Under the pieces are notes generated by a model. It was not told the DNA's origin. It saw only the letters and a list, made by a program, of their open reading frames with translations, and searched no databases. From NCBI GenBank assembly GCA_964106645.2, contig OZ067043.1: 64,000 nucleotides of DNA; one strand, given 5' to 3'. Below are positions 12,943 to 64,000 of this stretch, piece after piece (the stretch's first letter is position 1; the number at the start of each line of letters is the position of its first letter). The position numbers were made by a program, and so were the translations under genes. Source of the DNA: Podarcis pityusensis. Its lineage: Eukaryota.

Positions 12943-15900
12943 TCATGTACTTTCAAAATCTGAGACAGGCGAGGATGATGGGAACACAACATTTTCAATA
13001 ACAGGCTGCTCTTCTAGCTCAAAAGGGGGTGGTGAAACAGCCCCACCTGGCTCTTCCTCTGGATTGGGAGGAGTTGGAAACATAACCCCTTCTTGGTCAG
13101 GATTCTCAAAAGTGAGAGAAGGCAACAGGGGAGAATCATCTTTTTCAGCATTCTCCAAAGTGGGAGAAGGCAACAGGGGAGAGTGATCTTTTTCAGCATT
13201 CTCCAAAGTGGGAGAAGGCAAGAGGGGAGAGTCATCTTTTTCAGCATTCTCCAAAGTGGGAGAAGGCAAGAGGGGAGAGTCATCTTTTGGGGAGTCCGGA
13301 ACAGCAAGGACTGTGACTTCTTTTTCCTGCTTGGTCTTGCCATCGCCTTTAGGAAAAGAATCCTGTTTCTTCTTCCTTCTACGACGGAAGTACCAGCAGC
13401 AGCTGCACAGAGACAGGGAATCTTTATTACCATAAGGCATGTGGATCTTAGTAGGCACCCCTCCCATACAGCTCTGGTTGCCCAGAACCCCACAAGCAAA
13501 ATACAGGGAGGGACACATATAAGGAATATGGAAGCCAGATTCATAGGAAAGTGGTAACATCCCCCTTGCCCAAGAACTCTGTTGGGTTAGGGCAGGGGTA
13601 GGCAACCTAAGGCCCATGGGCTGGATGCGGCCCAATCGCCTCCTCAATCCGGCCCGCGGATGGTCCGGGAATCAGCGTTTTTTTCCATGAGTAGAATGTG
13701 TCCTTTTATTTAAATGCATCCCTGGGTTATTTGTGGGGCCTGCCTGGTGTTTTTACATGAGTGGAATGTGTGCTTTTATTTAAAATGCATCTCTGGGTTA
13801 TTTGTGGGGCATAGGAATTCATTCATTACTATTTTTTTCAAAATATAGTCCGGCCCACCACATGGTCTGAGGGACGGTGGACCGGCCCATGGCTGAAAAA
13901 GGTTGCTGACCCCTGGGTTAGAGTGTGCTGGTTAGGGTATCTTGGCCAGGATCAGGTGGTGGTTACTGAAAACAGTGATAATAATCAAATTGTAGAAAGG
14001 CATGTGGGGAAACTATGCAAGGGGGCTGTATTCAGAGGAAGGGCAAAGGTGGAATGAAAGCAATACCTGTTTGGTGCACTCTAGTCCCAGAAGCCAGGAA
14101 AGTAGAGAACTGGTGGTGCAGATATATGATCCCGTAGTGGAGGCATTCCCTGGGCACCCCCACCCCCAATTATCTGTGATAAGTGGTTGCACAGCCACTG
14201 TCATTTCTTGGGACCCTGCACTCACTTAATGACCAGCCACACATCTCTTTGGCCCACTAAATTTTACAGATGTGGGCTTAGACAGGAAAGAAGAAAACCC
14301 AGAACTCACAGCACAATGATACAGAAGCAAGTAAGCAGCAGGACGACAAAGATCACCAACAGAGCAGGAAACCCATGTGTTGGAGGGACTGCGTGGAAAG
14401 AGACACAGATTACTCAAGAGTGCCAGTTCTCCTCAGCACCCAGAGCCAAGCTGCCTATCCAGCAGCAGCACCCGCCTCTATTACCGTATTTTTCACCCTA
14501 TAGGACGCACTTCTTCCCCTCCAAAAATGAAGGGGAAATGTGTGTGCATCCTATGGGGCGAATGCAGGCTTTCGCTGAAGCCTGGAGAGCGAGAGGGGTC
14601 GGTGCAGACCGACCCCTCTCGCTCTCCAGGCTTCAGGAAGCTATCCGCAAGCTGTGGGAGAGCTGCATGACTTCGCGCAGTTCTCCCACGGCTAGCGGAG
14701 AGCTTGCCTGCACCCAGAAGCTTGGGGCGCGCTGAGCTCAGCACGCCCCAGGCTTCCAGCTTCGCGCAGCTCTCCGCTAGCCGTGGGAGAGCTGCGCGAA
14801 GCCCCACACCTGGGGGGGGGATAAAAAAAAATTCTTTATTTCCCCCCCCCAAAAAAACTAGGTGCATCCTATGGGCCGGTGCGTCCTATGGGGCGAAAAA
14901 TACGGTAATTTCAGGAACTCGAAAGTTAAACAGGAGGTGAGCTTAAGTATCACAGTGGAAAGAAAGGCCAAAGGGAAATAGGCAGCCAGTATAAACAAAC
15001 ACTGTTTGGACCAAATTCACACATGCACAGAACTGTTCCCTCACTAGATGCTCGTATATATGGTTGCAGTCTAGGAGCGCTGTTTCTTAGGTACCTAGGA
15101 ACACAAGAAAAGCCTTGCTAGCTCAGGCCAAAGGACCACCTCCTTCAGCATCTTGTTCTCACTGAGGTCTGCAGGACATGAGTGCAACAGTACTCACCTG
15201 TAATTCTGAGTAACTGGTATTCAGAGGCATACTGCCTCCAATAGTGGAGGTGGAACATAGCCATCTGAAGATAAATCTGTCTTTGGATTTAACATACAGG
15301 TTTGAGGGGACATTAAGTATACAGAGCATCACCTTAGGGGAGATGGATAATTAACACGATCACAGGAGGTGAAATTTAACTCTCCTGTTCTGAGTCTTGT
15401 GGTAAGAATTTACTTCTACATCACTCTGTCTGTTACCCAGATGAGGGGCCACCTTTTAAATAAAACACAGAATGAAGGAAACTAATTCAAGCCCAGCATC
15501 CAGGACTGAAGTAAATCCCTCCTCTGGAGCTAGTATTTCCATTGGGAAGAAATTCCCCATTGCGGCAAATCTTCCCAACTTCAGAGGAGAGATTTTTCTC
15601 AGGACTGCGGCAAGGAAAGAGTTAAAATCCCTCCCTTCACCCCCCTACAATCATGATACTTATCAGCCGCAGCCACACAGCTGATGCTATGTGCATTTTT
15701 TAAAACCTTGAACATATTTCATGTTGTGTCTAGCTTGACTCTCAGTATGCTAAGTCCAAGAACCAGTGCTGGAAAATCCAGAGAGGTCTCTCAGGAAGCC
15801 CTTCCTCATGTCACCCACCTGATACATACCTTCTGGGCTCATGCATTCCGCAGCTGTTCTGGCAGCAGGGTGCAAGGTTGACCCGTTGTGGTAGCACTGA

Positions 15901-32100: not shown

Positions 32101-33753
32101 TAGATTGTAAATCAAAGTCGACTCAATGGTATCTGCCTCTCATAAATCTCCACCTGCCCCATGCCACTACCCCAAAAAGGAGAGACATCAGAATCACCAA
32201 CTTTACATACCTTAAATCCCAGGTTTGTTCAGTGGAAGGAATGCAAGATTCCCACTATAGTAGATGAAGCCACTACAACCTCCAACCTGCAAACACATAG
32301 ACCCTCCTTGACCCTCTTCTCTCACCAGCACTGCCTGTGAAGAAAACATTCTTCCCACTCAGAACTGCATTCAACACCATTGACTGTTCCTGGGAGAGTT
32401 TTGCTCGGGAGCACATGGACCAAGTCTTCTTCACCTGCTGCTTTTCAGCCCCCTGAAAAGAGCACAGAAACCTGCCTTACGCTGAGTCAGACCAGTGGCT
32501 CATCTTGTTCAGTACTGTATCCACTGACTGGGAGCAGCTTCAGACAGGGGTGTTTTTAGCCCCACCTGGAGATTATGTGGGTTGAGCCTATGACATTCTG
32601 CCTGCATAACAGAATCCCCAAAAGGCAAACTCCTCTGAATCCAAAGTGCTCATGAGAATTTTCCATCCCATCTCTCTTGATTACAGCAGCCAGAAAGGAG
32701 AATGCCTCTCTTATCCAGAGGGATAGTTCTTTGAATTTCAATTGGACCAAAGAAGCCTTACGTTCAAATAAAATAATAATTTGACCTTGCCCATACCACT
32801 ATGGAAGTTCTGCTCAGGTATCCGCCAGTAAGACCAGCATGCATTGGAGAAAGGGCCTACTCTGTGGTGGCCTCAGTTATGGAACTTGCTAAGTGAGTTT
32901 CTGAAGTGCTTAAGGAGGGCATGAATCTGTCACTTTGCATAACCACAACTTCAGCATATGGGATTAGCAGGTGAGTATGTCCACTTTTCAGAAACTAGCC
33001 ACCACTCTTATGCCAAGGATGGGGAACCTCCGGGTATCCTTGGACTCCAACTCCCAACAGTCCCAGCCAGCACTGCCAGACCATGGGTGATGGGGGTTTG
33101 AGTCCAACAATACCTGGACGGCCAGAGATCCTTTTGTTATGGGCAGCTCCCAGCTAGATCATGCTTCCCGGCAGAAGCCGGCTCACCTGTTTCCCATCGA
33201 TGGACTCACTTCGGATCCGCTTCCGAGACGCGCAGCGTAAGGGCTGACCTTTCCGCGGAGTGCTTGTCACGTCAGTCAGAGCCTGCCGGGCGCTCGCCTG
33301 CTGCAAGTCGCGAGTCTGCACCGGGCTCACCGTGTCGAACGTCCGCGGTAGGCCAGCGAGAAGCCGCGTTCGCTCGGCCACAGGCTTGGTCACCCTCTGG
33401 GCGGCTGCGTGCTTGATGCGCAGCGTGTGGACGAAGCGGCGCAGCCGATCCGGAGGACAATTAGAGAGCAGCAGCTGCACGTGATTGTGGTTTGCACCGA
33501 GCTGCACCGAGCTCTTCCCCTCCTTCACGAAGCGTGTGAACAGCCGCACTTCACCCCGCCGCAGGGGGAAGTTCTGGGGGCGCCCCGGACCGCCGGCGCT
33601 GGCCACTTGCAGAACCAGCTCCTGGAACTCGTCCCGGCCCAGCGTGACCCAAGCATCGCGGAGAAGCGCACGATTCGGGGCTGCTGCAGCACCCAGGTGC
33701 TCGATCGCTACGGTGCAGCGAACCCGACCGTCCGCTTCGGAGCCTGGTTGCAT
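26145..33753 (-). CDS. PIF1: ATP-dependent 5'-3' DNA helicase PIF1, 12 coding exons, 640 aa
   Basis: Exons 33187-33753, 32326-32452, 31827-31952, 31585-31738, 30814-30928, 30627-30733, 30018-30157, 29406-29512, 28181-28268, 27704-27849, 26992-27183, 26145-26198. Walker [52 protein letters not shown]. Confidence 0.97.
26253..26600. mobile_element. GC-rich hAT-type MITE in last PIF1 intron
   Basis: CAGGGGTGGAGG...CTCCGCCACTG termini flanked by tgatcccc/tgatccgg. Confidence 0.65.
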
Positions 33754-33859
33754 CCCGTCCGACTGAAAACGAGGAGGCAACGCAGAAGTCGAGACCTGCA
33801 AAAATGTCTGTACTGAAAAAACGCCGACTTCTTACTGACTTTCCCTTTCGCGTTGATTT

Positions 33860-53200: not shown

Positions 53201-56200
53201 TGGACTAAGCCCTCTCTGCCCTGGAACTGCCCATTTTTGGTCGATGTGCCATTTTGGGTCTGTGCTTTTAAAGGTGAAAATCTTTATTAAGGTAATCTTG
53301 CTGCCATTGTTTATGGAATATTATCTATTACTCTGCTGCAAAACTGGACTAGAAAGTATGTATCTAGGAAAGTAGTTAACTAAGCTGCTTTATTTCATAG
53401 ATTCCACAAGACCAGTGCAGCAATGATCCAAACCAGTCGGACAAACAGGATGTTGTTTGTATTGCCTTCAGTCCTGCAGAGGAAACACTTCTGATCAGCA
53501 CAACTAAGAATCAGCTCTATCTCCTCTCCATATCAGCAGCTGAGATAAGCAAGGTGAGTTCATTAAGAGCACTGTGTTCTGAGTAACGACTTGGAAATGT
53601 GGTGTTCAAAGTAATTTTATATTCTTGTGCTGCAAAGAACAGAACGAAAACAAGAAACCAAGACAGTCTGGTAATATGACTGCATCAAATCAATTACTCA
53701 GCAACCCTAAAAAAAAGTGTTGAAAGGAGAACCAGCAACATAAAGAATACTCTCAATTGCACAGTTCTTCACCAGTCATGATATCACCACTGAATAACTC
53801 CTATAGCAACTTCACATTGAAAGCACCAGTAACCATGCAGCAATATCATGACCACACAACTCACGGCACTTAGGCCTTTCATTGGTATTTCCATCCGGAC
53901 CATAGCCAGTATCAATTTATGGATATAGAGAGTGGCAGCCTTTCCTGTTGCAACCTCCTTTGCCCTGGTGCATAGACATGTTGGTGTAATCGTCATCAAA
54001 ACAATTCAAAATGTCATGTTCTCCTGCGAGACAGCAAGGACACATTTCAGCTATCTTAAATACCTCTTGTGGAAAATCTCCCCAAGATTTGTAAGGTCTG
54101 TTCTCCAGTCAAATTTCCAGTAGTGGCTGTTTCTGTTTGGACCTCTTCAGAGTACTTTTCTATAGTCACTGGTGTACTTCTCTACAAATGCCCTATTTGT
54201 CACTACACTTTCCAGTGCTTTGATAAATTTAGTACATATCAAATGCCTCCTTTTTGCTATGGAGAGAAGTTCAGTGTTGCCTGGTGTTACACCATCACAT
54301 GAGCAGCTCTAGCTAACATGTTTGTGATATTTCACTAGGGGGAGACAGCTCACTTTGAATACCTGAACCACCCAATACATTCTGCTTCCATTACTGGCTT
54401 GGATACCTGCATTCGCAAGCCCCTCGTTGCTACCTGTTCACTGGACAAATCTGTCCGCATCTGGAATTATGAAAACAAGTAAGGGGACATGATCTGTTGC
54501 ACAGCCTTTTGATTTGACTATGTTGCACAGCCTTTTGACTATGAATTGTACTCAGACCATGAGTGAGTGGCAATTCACTACAGAGCCCCAGGCAATCATC
54601 AGGGCAAGTGTCAGTCCTATTCTGATAAATAGAAACTGCTTATATTTACAGTGGTGCCCCGCAAGACGAATGCCTCGCAAGACGAAAAACTCGCTAGATG
54701 AAAGAGTTTTCCGTTTTTTGAGTCGTTCCGCAAGACGAATTTCCCTATGGGCTTGCTTCGCAAGACGAAACGTCTTGCGAGTTCTTGCGAGTTTGTTTCC
54801 TTTTTCTTAAAGCTGCTAAGCCGCTAATAGCCGCTAAGCCGCTAATAGCCGTGCTTCGCAAGACGAAAAAACCGCAAGACGAAGAGACTCACGGAACGGT
54901 TTAATTTCATCTTGCGAGGCACCACTGTACTCAGAGAACAAAATAATATTAAGAGATGGTGGTTGCTCTAGAAATCAGTTGATAGGCAAGGTTCAGATAC
55001 ATAATTGTACTTCTTCATGGGACTCCTATGTATGTAACAGAAACATAACCCTAGTTCTAAATCCAGAAAAATCCATTAAAAACCTGGAGCTATCAAAATT
55101 AGAAAGCCTATTTCTTTTATCAACTTTAGATTTTAAAAATGGCAATTTTATTGTTAGTTCTGGTTATACGAATTGATTCTCATGTGATGCTGAATTAATT
55201 TGGTTGCCTGACAGTATGAAATGCCTGTCATGTGAAAAATTATTTTTGCTGCCCTGATGTATGCATTGAAAGGGACTGGTATATCTATGACGCTGTCAAG
55301 TTGTCTTTGTTCCCCTTTGTTCACTGTTCCCCAGCATTTGACCTTCTTGGGGGAACTGTGACCAAAAATAGCACTAGGTACAACTTAGTTGCACAGAAGC
55401 ATGGTCTGTGCTTTGATTGCCATGGTTGCTCTTGCTGCAGCACACTGGACCTGTACAAGGAATACCAAGAAGAGGCATATGCACTTTCCCTTCACCCTAG
55501 TGGACTGTATGTGTTGGTTGGTTTTGCTGACAAACTCCGACTTATGAATCTGCTTATTGATGACATCCGAACTTTCAAGGACTTCACTGTACGAGGGTGC
55601 AGAGAGGTGAGCAGTGCAGGGGAAGGAACTGGTGGAGGAGCTTGAATGGGGAACACCAGACTGGGAGGTGGCACAGGCAATTTATGACTAGTAAGTTGTG
55701 TTACCACGTTTGCTTGGAACAGGTCTCTCCCTACACATCGACAGACTATTTTTCTGTGTTCAGGAAATAACCCATACCAGAACACAATTTCTGGGGGAGA
55801 TTTTGCTCAAATATGCTAGAGGAATTTCCCCACATTCTGCTGGAATACAGAGTAGGGTGTGATTCCAGAAGGGTGATTTCCAGGTACATACAAAAAGACT
55901 ATTGCCTTCTTCCTATGGAATAAGGAGAGTCTTCGAGTTAGGTAGAATTTAGGATACTTCTTGTACAGACACCTGAAGTCTCAGGGTTCTCTGTTGCGAA
56001 TCAATTAGGCTAGGATTTGAAGAAAGATTCAACATTTAAGCATTTCAGAAGGTCTTACGCCAGTATAGAGTGGTACCTCCAGTTACGAATGGGATCCGTT
56101 CCGGAGGCCCAGCTGTATCCTGAAATCTTTGTAGCCGGAGGCTACCTTCTGCACACGCGGTGTGATTGAGCGCTTCTGCACACACATGGTGTGCAGAGCA

Positions 56201-59200
56201 CTTCTGCACATGCGCGTGCGGCGAAACCTGGAAGTATACATTTCCGGGTTTGCCGTGTTCGCAACCCTAAAGTTACGTTACCCAAAGGTATACGTCCACT
56301 GTATAGTGTGCGGACACTCCCTTTTCCATTTCAATAGAGTTCAGTGGGACCCTCAAGTAACTTTGTCCTAGTTTGGTAGGTCCTTAATAGCTCACTTTCC
56401 CAGACAAAATCTGGAGCCAAAGGAGGAGCACAAAATAGCAGAATACCACTCTCTGACAACAGATGCATCTGGTTGTGATGAAGGATGATTAGAGGCTGTT
56501 TTCTGCATGGCCTCCAAATTATGGATATCTGGTACCTTCACAAAGAGGTTACCTATGTGAAGTCTCATTGCTTCATGCTGTCTCCTGCTTCTGTCTACAG
56601 TGTGCCTTCAGTACAGGAGGTCATCTGTTTGCAGCAGTAAATGGAAATGTGATTCACATTTATTCTGCCATAAGTTTTGAAAACATCATTAACTTGAAAG
56701 GACACAATGGGAAGGTCAGTAAGTGATGCCTACAATACAAGTAAAATAGTACATTAAACTGAATATATTTGAAATGCCAAAAGAACAGGATTTCTCAAGA
56801 AGCTGGTTTTGAGGCTCTGCCTATGATTGAATTTTTTTTTTATTACAAAGGCACTAGAAACTAAAGAATAGAAGTGAAGGATTAAAAATACTCCAAGGTG
56901 CTCCTGAGTATAGTTCTCTGGCAGTGCAGATATAATTTGGATCACTTTTTACGAACAGTGGAATCAGCTTTCTCCTCTGTTATGTGCAATAGCTTAGGTT
57001 AAAAGAAAGCCAGCATTTTTACAGTACTTTGTAATCCTATACACACGTAGCTGGGAGTAAGTCCAACTGAACTCAGTGGGACTTACTACTGATTTTAATA
57101 GGAATGTGCTTAAATTTCTCTTGCTCAAATAGTAGGGCTTAAAAGTACTTTTGTTTGTCTGGGCTCGGCTTATCAAGAAAACAGATATATTATTTAATGT
57201 TTGTTTACTGAATTGCCAACAACCTGTTAGATGACTGTGGAGACTACATTCCCTCCAACCTCCCTTGCTGTAATTGGCTTCCCAAATATCAGTGCAAAAA
57301 AGACTTGAAATACTCTGAATTTAAGAACTTTGACCCAATGAATTTTAAGGAGCAAGTGGATTCCTCTGGAACTGTCATCAGCCCTGCTTTGATGCCCTAG
57401 TGATCACAAATAGGTAAATTCCAAGCTTCTGAAATGTTTTGAGATAGCTCCATAAGTTCCACCCATGATTACCTACAGCAGTTCAGTGCCCTCTTATCTC
57501 ACCATTTTGTGCTCGTGAGTCCAATTTATAGTGAAAGAAGCTGAAGCTTTGCTAAGGAAAGCAAGGGAACTATCTGGGATGGAATGAGATAAGGCTTATT
57601 AGCGATAAGGGAAAAGGTTAAACAGAATAAAGCAAGTTTGTAAACAGCCACTCTTATGTGATGAGAATTGCCTCCAGGCAACTAGGCAGATAATTTATTA
57701 TAATTTGGGAGAGTTTCATAAATAATTTTATAATTGACTCCAGTATTTATAAACATTTTTAAGTTACTACAATATACACGAGAGCAAGGTGAATGTGAAA
57801 ATGAAGCGAATACCTTTTTAATTGAGTTTTTAGAAATATGTATGGGTTCAAAAACTACAGAGCATGTTTTTTGTTATTCACATTTTATTGATTTGTCAAA
57901 AAAGGCATAGAACTTTGAGCAGGGGAGGACAAAACCTGAGGAGCAACAAGGACAGATGGTAATCTGCAGGCCTTTCCTTGCCACTGGCTATTAGCTATGA
58001 TGTGTTTGGAGACCAAATGTGTGAGCTGTTATAACTCGGAATTCAGTTCATGAACCTAATTCCTGACCCTCTTAGCCTGACCTGCTGGATTATAATGGGA
58101 ATCTTTATCTTAACTGCTTACAGGTAAACTGTGAGCACAAAGGACACAGGGTGAAAAGGGCTGTGTTCTGTGAGTTTCTTATGTAAAATGTTTGATGCAG
58201 TGACACCAGGTAAACAGGCAGAGTACCAAGCAGCAACCTGTCTCTTGTGCCTAAGTAAGGATTGCCTGAGCATTCTATATATATTCTCACTCGCCCCTCC
58301 AGGTACGCGCAGTGGCGTGGAGCATGGATGACTATAAACTGGTCTCCTGTGGCACAGATGGGGCAGTATATGAATGGAACCTCCAGAATGGCAAGAGAGA
58401 ATCCGAGTGTGTGCTCAAGTCCTGCAGCTACAATGGAGTGGCAATATCACCCGATGCAAAAGTCATATTTGCTGTCGGATCTGATCATAGCATCAAGGAG
58501 ATCTGTGATTCTGCGGTGAGCTCATGTGCAGACACTTATGGAGCTGATCAAAGTGCAGCAAACAATGCAGAAGAAAGTGAAGCTCAGTGAACCCAGTGCT
58601 GTAGCCAGTGGCAGAGCTTCATACTCCAGCAACGGGGGGCGGAGAGCAGGCGGGGTGCCCAGCGGGGGCGGGGGGGCAGCCGCAATGGCACCCTACTGGG
58701 ATTGCGCTGCCAGGGGTTGTGGCTTGCCCTCCAGCTTTTAACACCAGTGGTTGCCTATGCCATGTAGTGACAGTTGTGTTCATAGTTTCCTCCTTCTTCT
58801 CTATAAGCGTATAGATCGATAAAAGCAACATATAATTTTTGCTTCAAGTTATGGATGTATTTACATAGCAGAAAGTTCAGCACAAAGCACTGGTCCAGTG
58901 TGGATTTCCCTCTTTGGAAACCTGCCTGGACTTCAGATATCACCTTATTTGTATCTGCCCATTCTTCTAGTCTCCCAAGAAGGAGCCTGGCATATAGTTT
59001 GGAGGCTACATCTAACAAACTAATGGGTCTATAATTGGCAGGGTTTTTCTTATCGCCCTTTTTATATATTGGGGCAATTATGCTCAACTTCCACCCTTCA
59101 GGTATACGACCTGAGCTGTTAATGTATGAAAACAATTTTGCAAATATGGGTGACCAGAAATCAGGTCTTATTTTATAGATCTCCATTGGGATCATGTCTT

Positions 59201-62200
59201 CTCCTGGAGCTTTATTAGCTAGTTGGCTTGCGATTAGCCTCTTAATTTGATTGGGCGTGACGTCTGGCCATTCTGGCAGTTCTGATAACTGAGTATAGTA
59301 AACTTGTGGGGATAGGTCAGGACAGGGGCCGTATATTTCTGTAAAATATGTCACCCAATCCTTTCCTTGGACAGATGCTTCTAACGAGTAGCCCAGCCCA
59401 TTTGTGCCTTGGGCAACCAGATGCCAAAATTTCCGTGAGTCCTTCTGAAGTGCTGCATCTCCCAATTCTTTCCACTGTTGTTCATAATATATTTGTTTCT
59501 TGCTTTTAAGTAATAATTTATAGTTGTTTCGTAACTGGGCTACCTCAGCTTGTAGGGCAAGATTGTGCTTATCCTGTTTTAACTTCAATTTTCTAAGTAC
59601 CCTAGCTAGGCATTTTTTGCTATTCTGACATTCCTTATCAAACCAAGTCTGTCTCTTAAACTTTTTGTTTTTTATCACACTAGCTGTGGTCATCAGTGGG
59701 CGCATTCGGTTGATTATGTTCTCATAAAGTCCAATTACATTTCCTGTTTCTAACAACATTTTCCCCTTTAATAAAGCAAATTCATGGGAATCCAGGATCT
59801 GAATCATTTTTTCTTGGACCTGTGCATTCCATTTTAACCTTCTATTTCCAAGTATCAGATATTCTGTTTCATCCAATAATTTAGGAAAGGCAGGAGAAAA
59901 GAATAATGTCAGAGATAACTCAAGTGGAAAGTGGTCACTTTCAGCTCTGGGAATTATCCTGAAGGTATCTCGGTTAACTGGCACATTATTAGATGTTAGG
60001 ATATAATCTATGGTGCTAGTAAATCCTCTGGGGGAGGTAAAAGTAAAATAACCCTCTTGATCCCCTTGACCGTGCCCATTGCATAACAAAAGGTTATGCT
60101 TTATTATAAGTTCACAAAGATGTTTCCCAGCGCGATTAGAGGTGGTGTCCATTGCTGCCCTCTGACAGATTTCAGGTTCGTCCTCCAAGTTTAGACCAGA
60201 TAATATTGTATTTTGTGGGGAAACAAGGCCGATCCGGGCATTGAAGTCACCTCCCAAGATAAACCGAGGGTTAGGTGACAGAGAGTCAATACTTTCGAGT
60301 AGTTGGTCAAGTTTATCCCAATATGATCTCAGTTCCCCACAAGACTTTACTGGAGGTATATACACACATATGCAATAAGTATTTCTCAGGAGACTATCAG
60401 AAAGAGACAACACTAAAAAATTAGGGGTGGTCAGCAAGGGACACTGTTGAATTGATACATCAAGAGAGGTTGACACCAGCACCGCCAGCCCCCCACTAGG
60501 CCTTCCATACTTTACAGTTTTAAGAGCTGGTTGAGTGTAACTTGTAAAACCCTGTAATTCAACCATAGTGCCCTCTTTTGCCCAGGTTTCTTGAAGAAAG
60601 ATGATATCATGTGTTTGTAGGTAAGAACAGAAATCACTGTCTTGGATCTTGTTCGTCCACCCTGTTACATTCCATGAGAGAAGTTTAATTGTTTTACAGT
60701 GATTTACTCTTAGTCAATTGTTGGCCGATGTGCTCTCGGAGTTTACCAGTTTTTGAGGCAGGTTATTGCTAATGCTTGTGGAATAATCCAGATGTTCGAT
60801 TATTTCAGTCGTCGTACATAAAGTACTCACATTTGTAATCACTGGGCCTTTTCTTTGCAAATTGTTTGCCAATGGGGATTTCTTGGGTGTATTTCCTGAC
60901 TCCTCCTCTTCTAAATATCTCATCTTTGTCCAATACTCCGGTGGTTCTATAGTTATCATTCTGTTGTGGCCATTGGATCTATTATCAATCTCTGCCTCCG
61001 GTTCCTTAATCTCTTTCAGTGTCTGGCTCATAAGATCAAGCCTCTTGATAACTCTTTGTTGCTCTTCCTGAGGGAGATTCCTAAAGGAGCTGAGAAAATC
61101 CTCTTCCAAGGGATTTACAGAGTGCTCAGATTCCTGAAGATGATTGTCTAGAGGAATCGGCTGTTCCTTTTGGCTCACCTGGTTATTTTGATGTTGGGCA
61201 TGATCCTGCGGATTCAACTCAGGCATGTCTGTTTCCTCCCCACCTGCCAAGTCTTTTTGTGATGTCATTACTTCCATTGGGGATCCAGGCTTTGGTTTTG
61301 TGGGCCCCTCTGAAGCAGCAGTCCTCATCTTACATAAGGGTGCAACAATAGAATTGCAAAATACCCGGGTTGGGAAAACTCCTCTACTTGACAATCTGAA
61401 TTTCAGCTTGTGAATTAGTGAGGGCAGTCTAGTAGAGTAAAAAGTTAACATAATTTTTTGGCTTTGATTTGTGGTACTCAAGAGTTCAGTCCTAACGAGG
61501 TCGATCTCTGTAAGTCCAATGCCAAGTAAGTTTGATAAATGTCGTTTGGAACGCTGGGCACCTTTCCAGCTAGGAGTTTGATCTGGCCTTCCACAAATTG
61601 TCATGCAGATCTTTTTTGGTTGGAAGATTAAACAAGAAGAGTTTGTTTTAAGAGCCTCTGCACATTCTATGTTGAGCTTAGGGGTCTGCTCTTGTTGTCG
61701 CCAATTTCCTTTGGTATTATGGTGTTCTGTTGATGCCTGCTTGTTATTAACTGATAAACTGTGGACCTCTTTGGATAACTGGGTTATTTGAGAGGCAAGA
61801 CCTCTAATTTGCTGGAAGATATGCTCAACCGTTCTTGCAATTAGAGTTAATTGGGAGCTCTCCCTCCTTGTTATTTCTTCCTCTCTGAGGAGCACAGGAT
61901 CAGCTTGCCCCATTGCTGGATCCAGTTCCACGCTCTCACCTTGAATACTCTCCCCACACTCACAATCATCTTCAAGAGGATAAAACCGGTTTTTTGTTGG
62001 AACTGTAAAAGCAGATTTGTTAAAAAAGTCCTCTATTTTAGATTGTTTGGAAGCCGGTGAGAGAGCTACATCCTCTGGGTCCCTGTGGCGTTTACTAGCA
62101 GGCATAGCGTCACCGTAGGGAGTAAACAAGGAGAGGTTTCCCCAACCAAAAAAGAGAGAAAAGAATAGAAAGTGCTCAGTTTGTTCTCTGTGTGGAGACT

Positions 62201-63673
62201 GCCAGGGGTTTCAGGGACAAAGTATAGGAGGGAGTTGGCAGTTAATAGCTCTATAAGCGTATAGCCATCTATGGAATCTATACCTTGCCTTGGTTGCCAA
62301 AAATTGTGGGTTTCTTCCCAGTTATGAAGTTGAGAGGGAAATTCATGACTCTTGAGGCGTTGAGAGGATAACAGGACGTTCACAGTGGAGAGAATGAATG
62401 ATGGATTTGTGTACCCTCTGCCACTTTCCAGTGCAAATTTAATCCTTGCTGAGTGACTTGCTAAAAGCATGGTGGGTGTCCTTTCTTTCAGATACTGCGA
62501 GAAGTGCCCACTTTTGAAGTTGCCTACACTTTCATAGTGGTATCTCATTCTGGACGCATGGTGTTTGCCGGAACCTCTGCAGGGACCATTCGGTCCATGA
62601 AATACCCACTACCTGTGCACAAGGAATACAATGAATACCAAGCCCATGCTGGTCCAGTCACCAAGGTAAAGGCCAAGTCAGTCTCCAGGTCAACTTAATT
62701 GCCATAGCCTTTATTTATCCCTTCTTTTTCTGAGTCTGCAGCAACAAATAATGAAGGGAGGCACATCTTATATCACGCAATGAGCCACAAATGGGCATAT
62801 CTAAATATGATATATTTATTGTGTATCAAAGTAGCTTAATAAGAATGACAATAGACAACAGAGTCTCTAATCACAGTAATGGGGAAAATAATGAGAATGA
62901 GTTCTACCTAAACAGTACACCCATCAGCCTCATTCTCTTCCAAGCTGAGTGTATGTAGCTGGGAGAGTGTAGGGGAAATCTCTCTGGGTTGCTAACTTCT
63001 CAGACGCTGGAGTGCAACATTTACAACATTGTTGCTGTACAGTACTATTTTTAAAATGTTATTTCATCCAGAAGGCTTGTTTATCACTTATACTTTCACC
63101 ATAGGTTCCAGTAATGTTGAGAGCAAGGGTGTAGAGGGTGACTGTGCTTCTTGGTGTCATGTTTAAAATCAGTCTACTACTGTGCCTCATTAAAAAGATA
63201 AGACTGAGATTGATAATGAGAGCGAATGGAAAAGCCACTGAAAACAAGGAGAAGTTGTTAATTAAATGGATTCTGAGGAATGGACAGCAGCCTGACAAAT
63301 GGCAAGGGGAATGCTTGGAGCATAATGGGGAAAGTAGAGAAGAAGAGAAGAGATATCACTAGAGGCAAAGAGATGGATATATTTTAAAAATAATTGATCC
63401 TTATTAATCCAACCGGAGCATCTTCTTCTGATTCTGCCAACTGCCCTTTCTTTTCTCTGACTCTCCAATTGTGTTTTATTGGAGTTCAGTATGCCTTTCT
63501 TTTCTCCACAGATGTCCATAACAGCTGATGATCAGTTCTTACTAACATCTGCAGAGGATGGCTGTATATTTATCTGGAAAGTTTATGACAAAGAAGGGCG
63601 GGGGTTGAAAAGGGAGAGAGATGTGCCATACTCTGATGAAGTATTGATCACTAGAACAGACATGGAAGAGAAG
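47286..63673 (+). CDS. CFAP57: Cilia- and flagella-associated protein 57 (WDR65), first 11 coding exons; gene continues beyond the window
   Basis: Exons 47286-47442, 48724-49040, 50369-50655, 51649-51856, 53401-53553, 54339-54478, 55441-55606, 56601-56714, 58303-58515, 62492-62665, 63512-63673; phases consistent. WD40 repeats; N-terminus [36 protein letters not shown]; head-to-head with EBNA1BP2 as in human. Confidence 0.95.
48141..48239 (+). mobile_element. CR1 LINE 3' end
   Basis: GCAGGGGGTTGGACTAGATGACCCTTGAGGTTCCTTCCAACTCTATGATTCCATG, a typical CR1 terminus. Confidence 0.8.
52870..53049 (+). mobile_element. CR1 LINE 3' end
   Basis: GAGAGCTGTTCAGCAGTGGAAC...GGTTGGACTAGATGACC..CAACTCTAAGATTCTATGAT. 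Confidence 0.8.
54649..54927. mobile_element. Tc1/mariner (Tigger-like) MITE
   Basis: TA-CAGTGGTGCCCCGCAAGACG...CTTGCGAGGCACCACTG-TA with internal CGCAAGACGAA repeats. Confidence 0.85.
56067..56301. mobile_element. Tc1/mariner (Tigger-like) MITE, diverged
   Basis: GAGTGGTACCTCCAGTTACGAA...CCACTG-TA; related to 3394-3621. Confidence 0.65.
58815..60713 (-). CDS. LINE ORF2: APE endonuclease plus truncated reverse transcriptase
   Basis: EN motifs [47 protein letters not shown]; RT motifs [38 protein letters not shown]. Breaks off at the TSD before the YADD region. Confidence 0.9.
60714..62105 (-). CDS. LINE ORF1 protein (463 aa from MPASKRHR)
   Basis: Uninterrupted ORF directly upstream of the endonuclease; coiled-coil-like segment ([22 protein letters not shown]) and an NRFYPL motif seen in LINE ORF1/linker regions. 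Confidence 0.8.
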   Translation of the reverse strand: MPASKRHRDPEDVALSPASKQSKIEDFFNKSAFTVPTKNRFYPLEDDCECGESIQGESVELDPAMGQADPVLLREEEITRRESSQLTLIARTVEHIFQQIRGLASQITQLSKEVHSLSVNNKQASTEHHNTKGNWRQQEQTPKLNIECAEALKTNSSCLIFQPKKICMTICGRPDQTPSWKGAQRSKRHLSNLLGIGLTEIDLVRTELLSTTNQSQKIMLTFYSTRLPSLIHKLKFRLSSRGVFPTRVFCNSIVAPLCKMRTAASEGPTKPKPGSPMEVMTSQKDLAGGEETDMPELNPQDHAQHQNNQVSQKEQPIPLDNHLQESEHSVNPLEEDFLSSFRNLPQEEQQRVIKRLDLMSQTLKEIKEPEAEIDNRSNGHNRMITIEPPEYWTKMRYLEEEESGNTPKKSPLANNLQRKGPVITNVSTLCTTTEIIEHLDYSTSISNNLPQKLVNSESTSANN

Positions 63674-64000
63674 GTCAGTATGGATGAGTTTTGAAGTGGG
63701 AAGAGAACACAACAGAAGACTTTGTATCAACTAACCCAAATGTGCTTTATCTCCATGGGGGCAGCACTTACCCAGTACATATCATGACCCTAGTAGAGAT
63801 GTGACAGCAGGTTGAATTAGCCTTATAATACAAGAATCAAACATTGTACACTTAAAATGTAGCTCATGAGCTACATTGCTCCCTGTCCTGAAACCTACTT
63901 CACATGTTATAGGAAATGCATATATATGGCCAGATACAATATATGCTGTCTTTATATATGATAGTTTTTCAGATAAACGTGAAGGGCAGGATTCACCTGG

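Follow-up and report, generated by a model that had tools for sequence, protein, structure and literature searches.

A probable UGA readthrough site between ORF1 and ORF2 of an RTEX-like LINE in a lizard genome

The translation of ORF2 in LINEs is a long-standing and partly solved problem, and the cases covered in reviews are either reinitiation (L1, SART1) or 2A skipping. In mammalian L1 a 63-nt spacer precedes the AUG of ORF2, and in silkworm SART1 the stop and start codons overlap (UAAUG); both are described as reinitiation. Readthrough of UGA has been described from other systems. UGA-CUA by itself gave 1.5 % readthrough in HEK-293T cells (PMC4132726), CUAG is a stronger context than CUAA, and the residues reported for UGA readthrough are Trp, Arg and Cys. 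Spacers of 8-9 nt are given for MuLV, VEEV and Drosophila kelch (PMC3159437). Traces of the RTEX clade, which includes RTEX-2_NV and the human fossils L4 and L5, are known from amniotes.

When a 64,000-nt stretch of lizard DNA (hereafter the window) was analyzed, a 3'-truncated copy of what appears to be an RTEX-like LINE was found on the minus strand. The RTEX placement comes from a by-eye comparison with eight passages in the supplement of PMC3708506, in which the N-terminal part of the RT was nearer to RTEX-2_NV than to RTE-1, Proto2 or Daphne/Crack. The copy consists of the following parts.

62249..62264, no strand: 16-bp perfect direct repeat, 5' copy, likely target-site duplication (repeat search)
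62106..62248, minus strand: 143-nt leader, from the repeat to the ORF1 ATG, putative 5' UTR, possibly incomplete (sequence)
60714..62105, minus strand: ORF1, 463 aa, from ATG 62105 to TGA 60716-60714 (ORF list, Pfam, model; similarity to a Podarcis lilfordi protein)
58815..60713, minus strand: ORF2 frame with endonuclease, linker and start of the RT, cut about 80 residues into the RT profile (ORF list; Pfam RVT_1, positions 3-76 of 205)
58799..58814, no strand: 16-bp direct repeat, 3' copy, right at the RT break; poly(A) and 3' UTR absent

The repeats enclose ORF1 together with its leader and with 633 codons from the start of ORF2, so that the insert lies between perfect 16-bp repeats as in the target-site duplication of APE-type non-LTR elements. 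The break falls inside the RT, whose frame is carried on by the first bases of the repeat (58799-58830, minus strand), and the missing 3' half was not present elsewhere in the window. Since the copy is 3'-truncated within the RT, has a perfect 16-bp duplication and lacks poly(A), its structure suggests that reverse transcription was primed within the RNA; this reverses the common pattern, in which the 5' end is truncated. Such a copy would have been dead on arrival, yet it is undamaged and is therefore probably young. The element has two named relatives, the Podarcis lilfordi protein (93 % over 146 aa) and a Podarcis muralis protein, P0001 (71 %), and these make a lacertid the most probable host.

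Other features were observed in the window. A 180-codon open frame (62066-62608, minus strand) runs over the 5' duplication into the element, and its upstream 119 codons gave no Pfam match. An exon of the host gene LRR1 lies at 33154-33831 on the minus strand (PH_LRR1, E 4.4e-14). A 48-nt unit is repeated four times with 95 % matches at 13097-13288, inside a 242-codon minus-strand open frame (12943-13671) for which no Pfam match was obtained. In addition, a short element at about 56060-56305 appears to be bounded by inverted repeats and contains a 28-nt tandem repeat; it resembles a Mariner-type MITE.

The original prediction placed the end of ORF1 at TGA 60716-60714, followed in the same frame by CTA AGA and by 49 sense codons (60713-60569) without an ATG before the first Met at 60566. 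Re-reading of the minus strand confirmed all of this. The TGA is the sole stop among 1097 in-frame codons between 62105 and the 3' break, and the frame downstream of it is open for 652 codons. The features around this junction are listed below.

60711..60716, minus strand: TGA-CTA, sole in-frame stop in a leaky type II context (sequence; context from literature)
60687..60689, minus strand: ATT, the only in-frame near-cognate codon between the stop and motif I, candidate reinitiation site (sequence)
60669..60671, minus strand: Asn codon of endonuclease motif I (alignment)
60588..60590, minus strand: Glu codon of endonuclease motif II (alignment)
60564..60566, minus strand: first in-frame ATG of ORF2, 3' of both motifs (sequence)
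59901..60698, minus strand: complete APE-type endonuclease domain (PF03372, E 1.5e-19; model; L1 endonuclease structures, E 6e-24)

A UGA followed by CUA or CGG, with the downstream ORF in frame, is the arrangement of type II readthrough. The UGA-CUA named in the original prediction is present; the vertebrate-type CUAG is not, as the sequence here reads UGA-CUA-A, which is identical to that of Sindbis virus (PMC13517186). No AUG lies at or overlaps the ORF1 stop as in SART1, the nearest ATGs (60675 and 60670) being out of frame and the first in-frame one being that at 60566. The 2A signature D(V/I)ExNPGP (motif as given in PMC3708506) was also absent from the translated junction ahead of the APE domain.

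The downstream frame encodes an APE endonuclease upstream of an RT (PF03372, PF00078). Its PF03372 match begins at residue 12, and L1 endonuclease structures were the top matches. Across a 56-row alignment, hardly any variation is seen at the motif-I Asn and the motif-II Glu, which align to the Asn and Glu of the human L1 endonuclease, in agreement with the claim that essential APE motifs lie within the 49 codons. The corresponding human residues are N14 and E43. A model with a mean pLDDT of 84.6 has the start of its first endonuclease strand six residues past the stop. A protein starting at Met 60566 would, as predicted, lack the catalytic residues, and according to the model it would also lose two strands and two helices; it would not be expected to work as an endonuclease.

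The ORF1 model contains a long helix (70-123, 54 residues), an RRM-like domain (157-253), a helical hairpin (332-367), and disordered linkers and tail. RRM domains were on top in the structure search (best Z 7.5, below Z 8), and the central domain of L1 ORF1p (2w7a) matched the model with Z 7.1 and an rmsd of 3.2 over 82 aligned residues. No match was obtained for ORF1 in the Pfam scan, with Foldseek at E 0.001, or in the Atlas at a threshold of at least 0.9. An N-terminal basic motif, a predicted coiled coil, the RRM-like domain and the hairpin, which is conserved, characterize the ORF1 family (alignment A1); the RRM-like domain is lacking in the relatives P0012 and P0083 and partly lacking in P0059 and P0049. 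Some ORF1s of the RTEX clade carry an esterase, which was absent here from both the Pfam scan and the model. The esterase is not universal in that clade.

Relatives were collected with ORF1 and the endonuclease start as the query against 1.84 billion representatives. This gave 441 matches, of which the best 150 were analyzed, and 47 of these were assigned to the ORF1 side by the stretch that they matched. Word-indexed searches gave one match among 4412 candidates with ORF1 alone and three among 7996 with a 34-row ORF1 profile, and the junction query gave one uninformative match among 11 short proteins. When genome contigs were scanned, one of 38 candidate stretches passed (L001 1388-1756). It belongs to an unrelated bacterial region, presumably encoding a RidA-like small protein near a release-factor-like GTPase, and was rejected as spurious.

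An N-[GN]-[CS]-[VI] motif was found in 16 of the 47 ORF1-side matches (among the best 150 of 441). Ten of its carriers end exactly 16 residues past the motif, one ends 15 residues past it, and five run on.

Motif carriers ending 15-16 residues past the motif: P0003, P0008, P0009, P0013, P0017, P0018, P0052, P0056, P0059, P0064, P0083

These 11 proteins are mutually only 16-38 % identical (55 pairs), and the fixed end point of ORF1 is thus likely to be old. The motif-profile scores of the ten proteins ending at 16 residues are circular, as the profile was built from them. In the window, ORF1 has a degenerate form of the motif (about 60786-60850) followed by about 23 extra residues. The tails of the 11 relatives are otherwise unalignable, and the motif has low confidence in both models.

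Among the five motif carriers that run on, two (P0016 and P0098) have Trp at the exact stop position (binomial p 0.0007-0.003). In P0016, motif I follows this Trp by five residues, in frame and without a Met. Seven relatives span the junction; they are listed with the residue at the stop position and the next residue.

P0016: Trp then Gln
P0098: Trp then Leu
P0033: Trp then Leu (Trp on the stop in the local alignment)
P0041: Trp then Leu (Trp on the stop in the local alignment)
P0082: Trp then Leu (Trp inside a gapped stretch, less exact; ORF1 segment upstream, E 5.8e-5)
P0021: Arg then Leu (Arg just outside the aligned block, less exact)
P0001, Podarcis muralis: Leu then Leu (closest spanning relative)

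The stop position is accordingly occupied by Trp in five, Arg in one and Leu in one. TGA is the sole stop codon that is one base away from Trp, Arg and Leu codons alike. The next residue is Leu in six of the seven, which is what CTA would give. As the relatives were compared as predicted proteins, their TGA and CTA codons are read back from amino acids. The spanning records probably come from mutated dead copies or from a gene caller that takes TGA as Trp. Trp-Leu was found in 3 of 15 linkers vs none in 739 residues further upstream (p 0.016), and Trp alone was not enriched in the linkers (6 of 15 vs 4.5 expected, p 0.29). P0019 also spans the junction, with a linker that looks frameshifted, and is outside the seven; the end of P0012 matched that of the window in a forced C-terminal alignment and not locally, and was not counted. 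Taken together, a stop at the ORF1/endonuclease junction looks like a trait of the family, and at the protein level this stop is most likely a TGA, usually followed by Leu and in frame with the endonuclease.

The annotated starts of 29 close endonucleases were also compared. An ATG upstream of the SWNV motif had been named in the original prediction as evidence against it, and in 11 of the 29 a Met is indeed annotated at a distance of 3-30 residues ahead of motif I; the extension is longer in 12, one starts at motif I, and five start past it. An annotated Met may stand for ATG, GTG or TTG, and if many of them are ATG, readthrough would not be universal in the lineage. Families with an out-of-frame ORF2 are invisible in this comparison, because junction-spanning proteins are in frame by construction. 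The upstream extensions of three more distant endonucleases (P0070, P0077 and P0089) look like a C-terminal domain of an ORF1 joined in frame, hinting at in-frame or fused ORF1-ORF2 arrangements in other lineages. A tree of the endonuclease N-terminus (76 rows, 108 columns, quick method) was poorly resolved and placed P0016 and P0021 nearest to the window with weak support. In the Atlas, P0029 matched EN-RT clusters.

Folding of the region 3' of the stop had been suggested in the original prediction as a check for a stimulatory stem-loop, and a helix was predicted there.

60706..60713, minus strand: 8-nt spacer from the stop codon to the helix
60696..60705, minus strand: 5' arm of a 10-bp Watson-Crick helix (predicted); first position +12, counting from the stop's U
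60631..60640, minus strand: 3' arm of the predicted helix, with a 55-nt loop

A perfect 10-bp helix follows after 8 nt, but it is not stable in longer folds: its bases pair with a probability of 0.81-1.0 when 100 nt are folded, of about 0.65 for 151 nt, and of 0.1-0.5 for windows of 160-220 nt. The helix is A/U-rich, and the 151-nt region folds no better than its shuffles (z +1.29). Out of 2000 synonymous-codon shuffles, 23 also gave 10 bp, as did 8 of the element's 1021 pseudo-stop positions, some of these 8 representing this same helix. A role of the helix as a readthrough stimulator is suggestive only. Nor can it separate readthrough from reinitiation, because reinitiation in SART1 needs downstream structure too.

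Taken as a whole, the conserved in-frame stop seen at the protein level and a helix at viral-type spacing support the reading given in the original prediction, and we consider it probable that this LINE family uses programmed UGA readthrough between ORF1 and ORF2. Three other explanations were weighed against it. The first is that ribosomes terminate at the UGA and reinitiate a few codons on independently of AUG, for example at ATT 60689, to give a free ORF2p. This ATT is in frame, has an A at -3 and lies just before the first endonuclease strand, and many of the endonuclease matches begin 3-10 residues before motif I. Reinitiation has precedents in L1 and SART1 (PMC5972666, PMC5009743, PMC2881922, PMC3708506); initiation of mammalian L1 ORF2 is described as AUG-independent (PMC5009743), and SART1 combines a stop-start overlap with its downstream structure. 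However, reinitiation needs neither an in-frame stop, nor a TGA, nor a following Leu, and all of these seem to recur in distant relatives. In P0016, moreover, motif I is only five residues away from the stop position. Reinitiation, the main rival, is unlikely, though it deserves to be kept in mind.

The second explanation is a family with a single long ORF1-EN-RT protein, in which this dead copy has acquired the TGA as a private nonsense change. The original prediction stated that a sense codon at this site in other copies would speak against readthrough, and one copy, P0001, does have Leu there. The copy in the window is itself 3'-truncated and dead on arrival, hence under no selection, and among the 12 endonucleases with an upstream extension of more than 30 residues, seven show no Trp-Leu or motif-Trp junction. 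On the other side, P0001 leaves the endonuclease frame 12 codons past the site, its tail matching another frame of the window, and it looks like a decayed copy because of this loss. P0069 (46 % identical) stops, in the alignment, opposite the last ORF1 residue of the window, in line with the 11 distant ORF1s that end at a fixed point. No full-length fusion was found among 49 ORF1-profile matches (best 150 of 441), the largest of which has 617 aa; the three with an endonuclease start are fragments of 129-302 aa. In addition, of the 496 single-base changes that could create a stop in the element, only 10 (2 %) fall in the 38-codon linker, and TGACTA accounts for 22 of the 6026 stop triplets when both strands of the window are counted (0.4 %). 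We therefore regard a private nonsense change as very unlikely.

Finally, it is likewise very unlikely that the stop is removed in the RNA (by A-to-I editing that turns UGA into a codon read as Trp, or by a small splice) or read as selenocysteine: editing would also yield the Trp that is commonest at the site, but so would an A-to-G change in dead copies or a gene caller with TGA as Trp, the predicted folds leave the stop unpaired, and no Rfam match, SECIS included, was obtained at E up to 1 in 57500-64000, the 3' UTR of the element being missing.

Support for programmed readthrough is indirect. The frame, the context, the position of the catalytic residues and the conserved end point of ORF1 were observed, and a TGA in the relatives, the helix, the decoding event and a role of the fusion are deduced. 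ORF1 and ORF2 would form one reading frame broken by one programmed UGA. Most ribosomes would end there and release ORF1p with its predicted coiled coil and RRM-like domain. A few percent would instead read the UGA with a near-cognate tRNA, inserting Trp, Arg or Cys, a step favored by the following CUA and perhaps also by the helix that begins 8 nt further on. The product would be an ORF1-EN-RT fusion made at a high ORF1p:ORF2p ratio, and the fusion could place the enzyme inside an ORF1p multimer on its own RNA.

A broader proposal is that a whole old and diverse RTEX-like lineage makes its endonuclease and RT in this way, as a protease-free Gag-Pol-like fusion, and that the motif 16 residues before the stop is a nascent-peptide or docking signal; this is about as likely as not. 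In the open full-text literature, as far as its text could be searched, no report was found of a stop codon being read through between the two ORFs of a non-LTR element; subscription papers, Repbase and Dfam lie outside this scope, and a database note may exist. If true, readthrough would add a third way of making ORF2p to the known reinitiation and 2A skipping, and would represent convergence with the control of retroviral gag-pol and the alphavirus polymerase in an element that has no protease. An ORF1-ORF2 fusion would then be the active enzyme, and the signal would be compact and directly testable. Automatic annotation of such elements would then truncate or miss the endonuclease.

Compared with other LINEs, the element resembles mammalian L1 and silkworm SART1 in being bicistronic, in having an ORF1 with a predicted coiled coil and RRM-like domain, and in an ORF2 output that would depend on ORF1 translation. 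Unlike in both, a spacer is lacking and no AUG precedes the catalytic residues. With the 2A elements (L1Tc, Ingi, CR1, L2 and Crack) it would share translational recoding in a single frame, ahead of the APE domain (PMC3708506); however, their products are separated without a stop, whereas in the lizard LINE a stop would be bypassed to join the products. The alphavirus nsP3/nsP4 junction (Sindbis, VEEV) is similar in its helix of about 10 bp, 8-nt spacer and long loop and in having the polymerase past a leaky stop. It differs in that the lizard element is a non-LTR retrotransposon with an A/U-rich predicted helix and no protease to cut the fusion. In the case of MuLV gag-pol, an RNA-binding structural protein is likewise in frame with an RT-containing enzyme through one stop, and the spacer is also 8 nt, but MuLV uses UAG-G, a pseudoknot and a protease, whereas the LINE has UGA-CUA, a simple predicted helix and an APE endonuclease. 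By analogy, the element would work like type II alphavirus readthrough and gammaretroviral gag-pol, yet it belongs to neither group.
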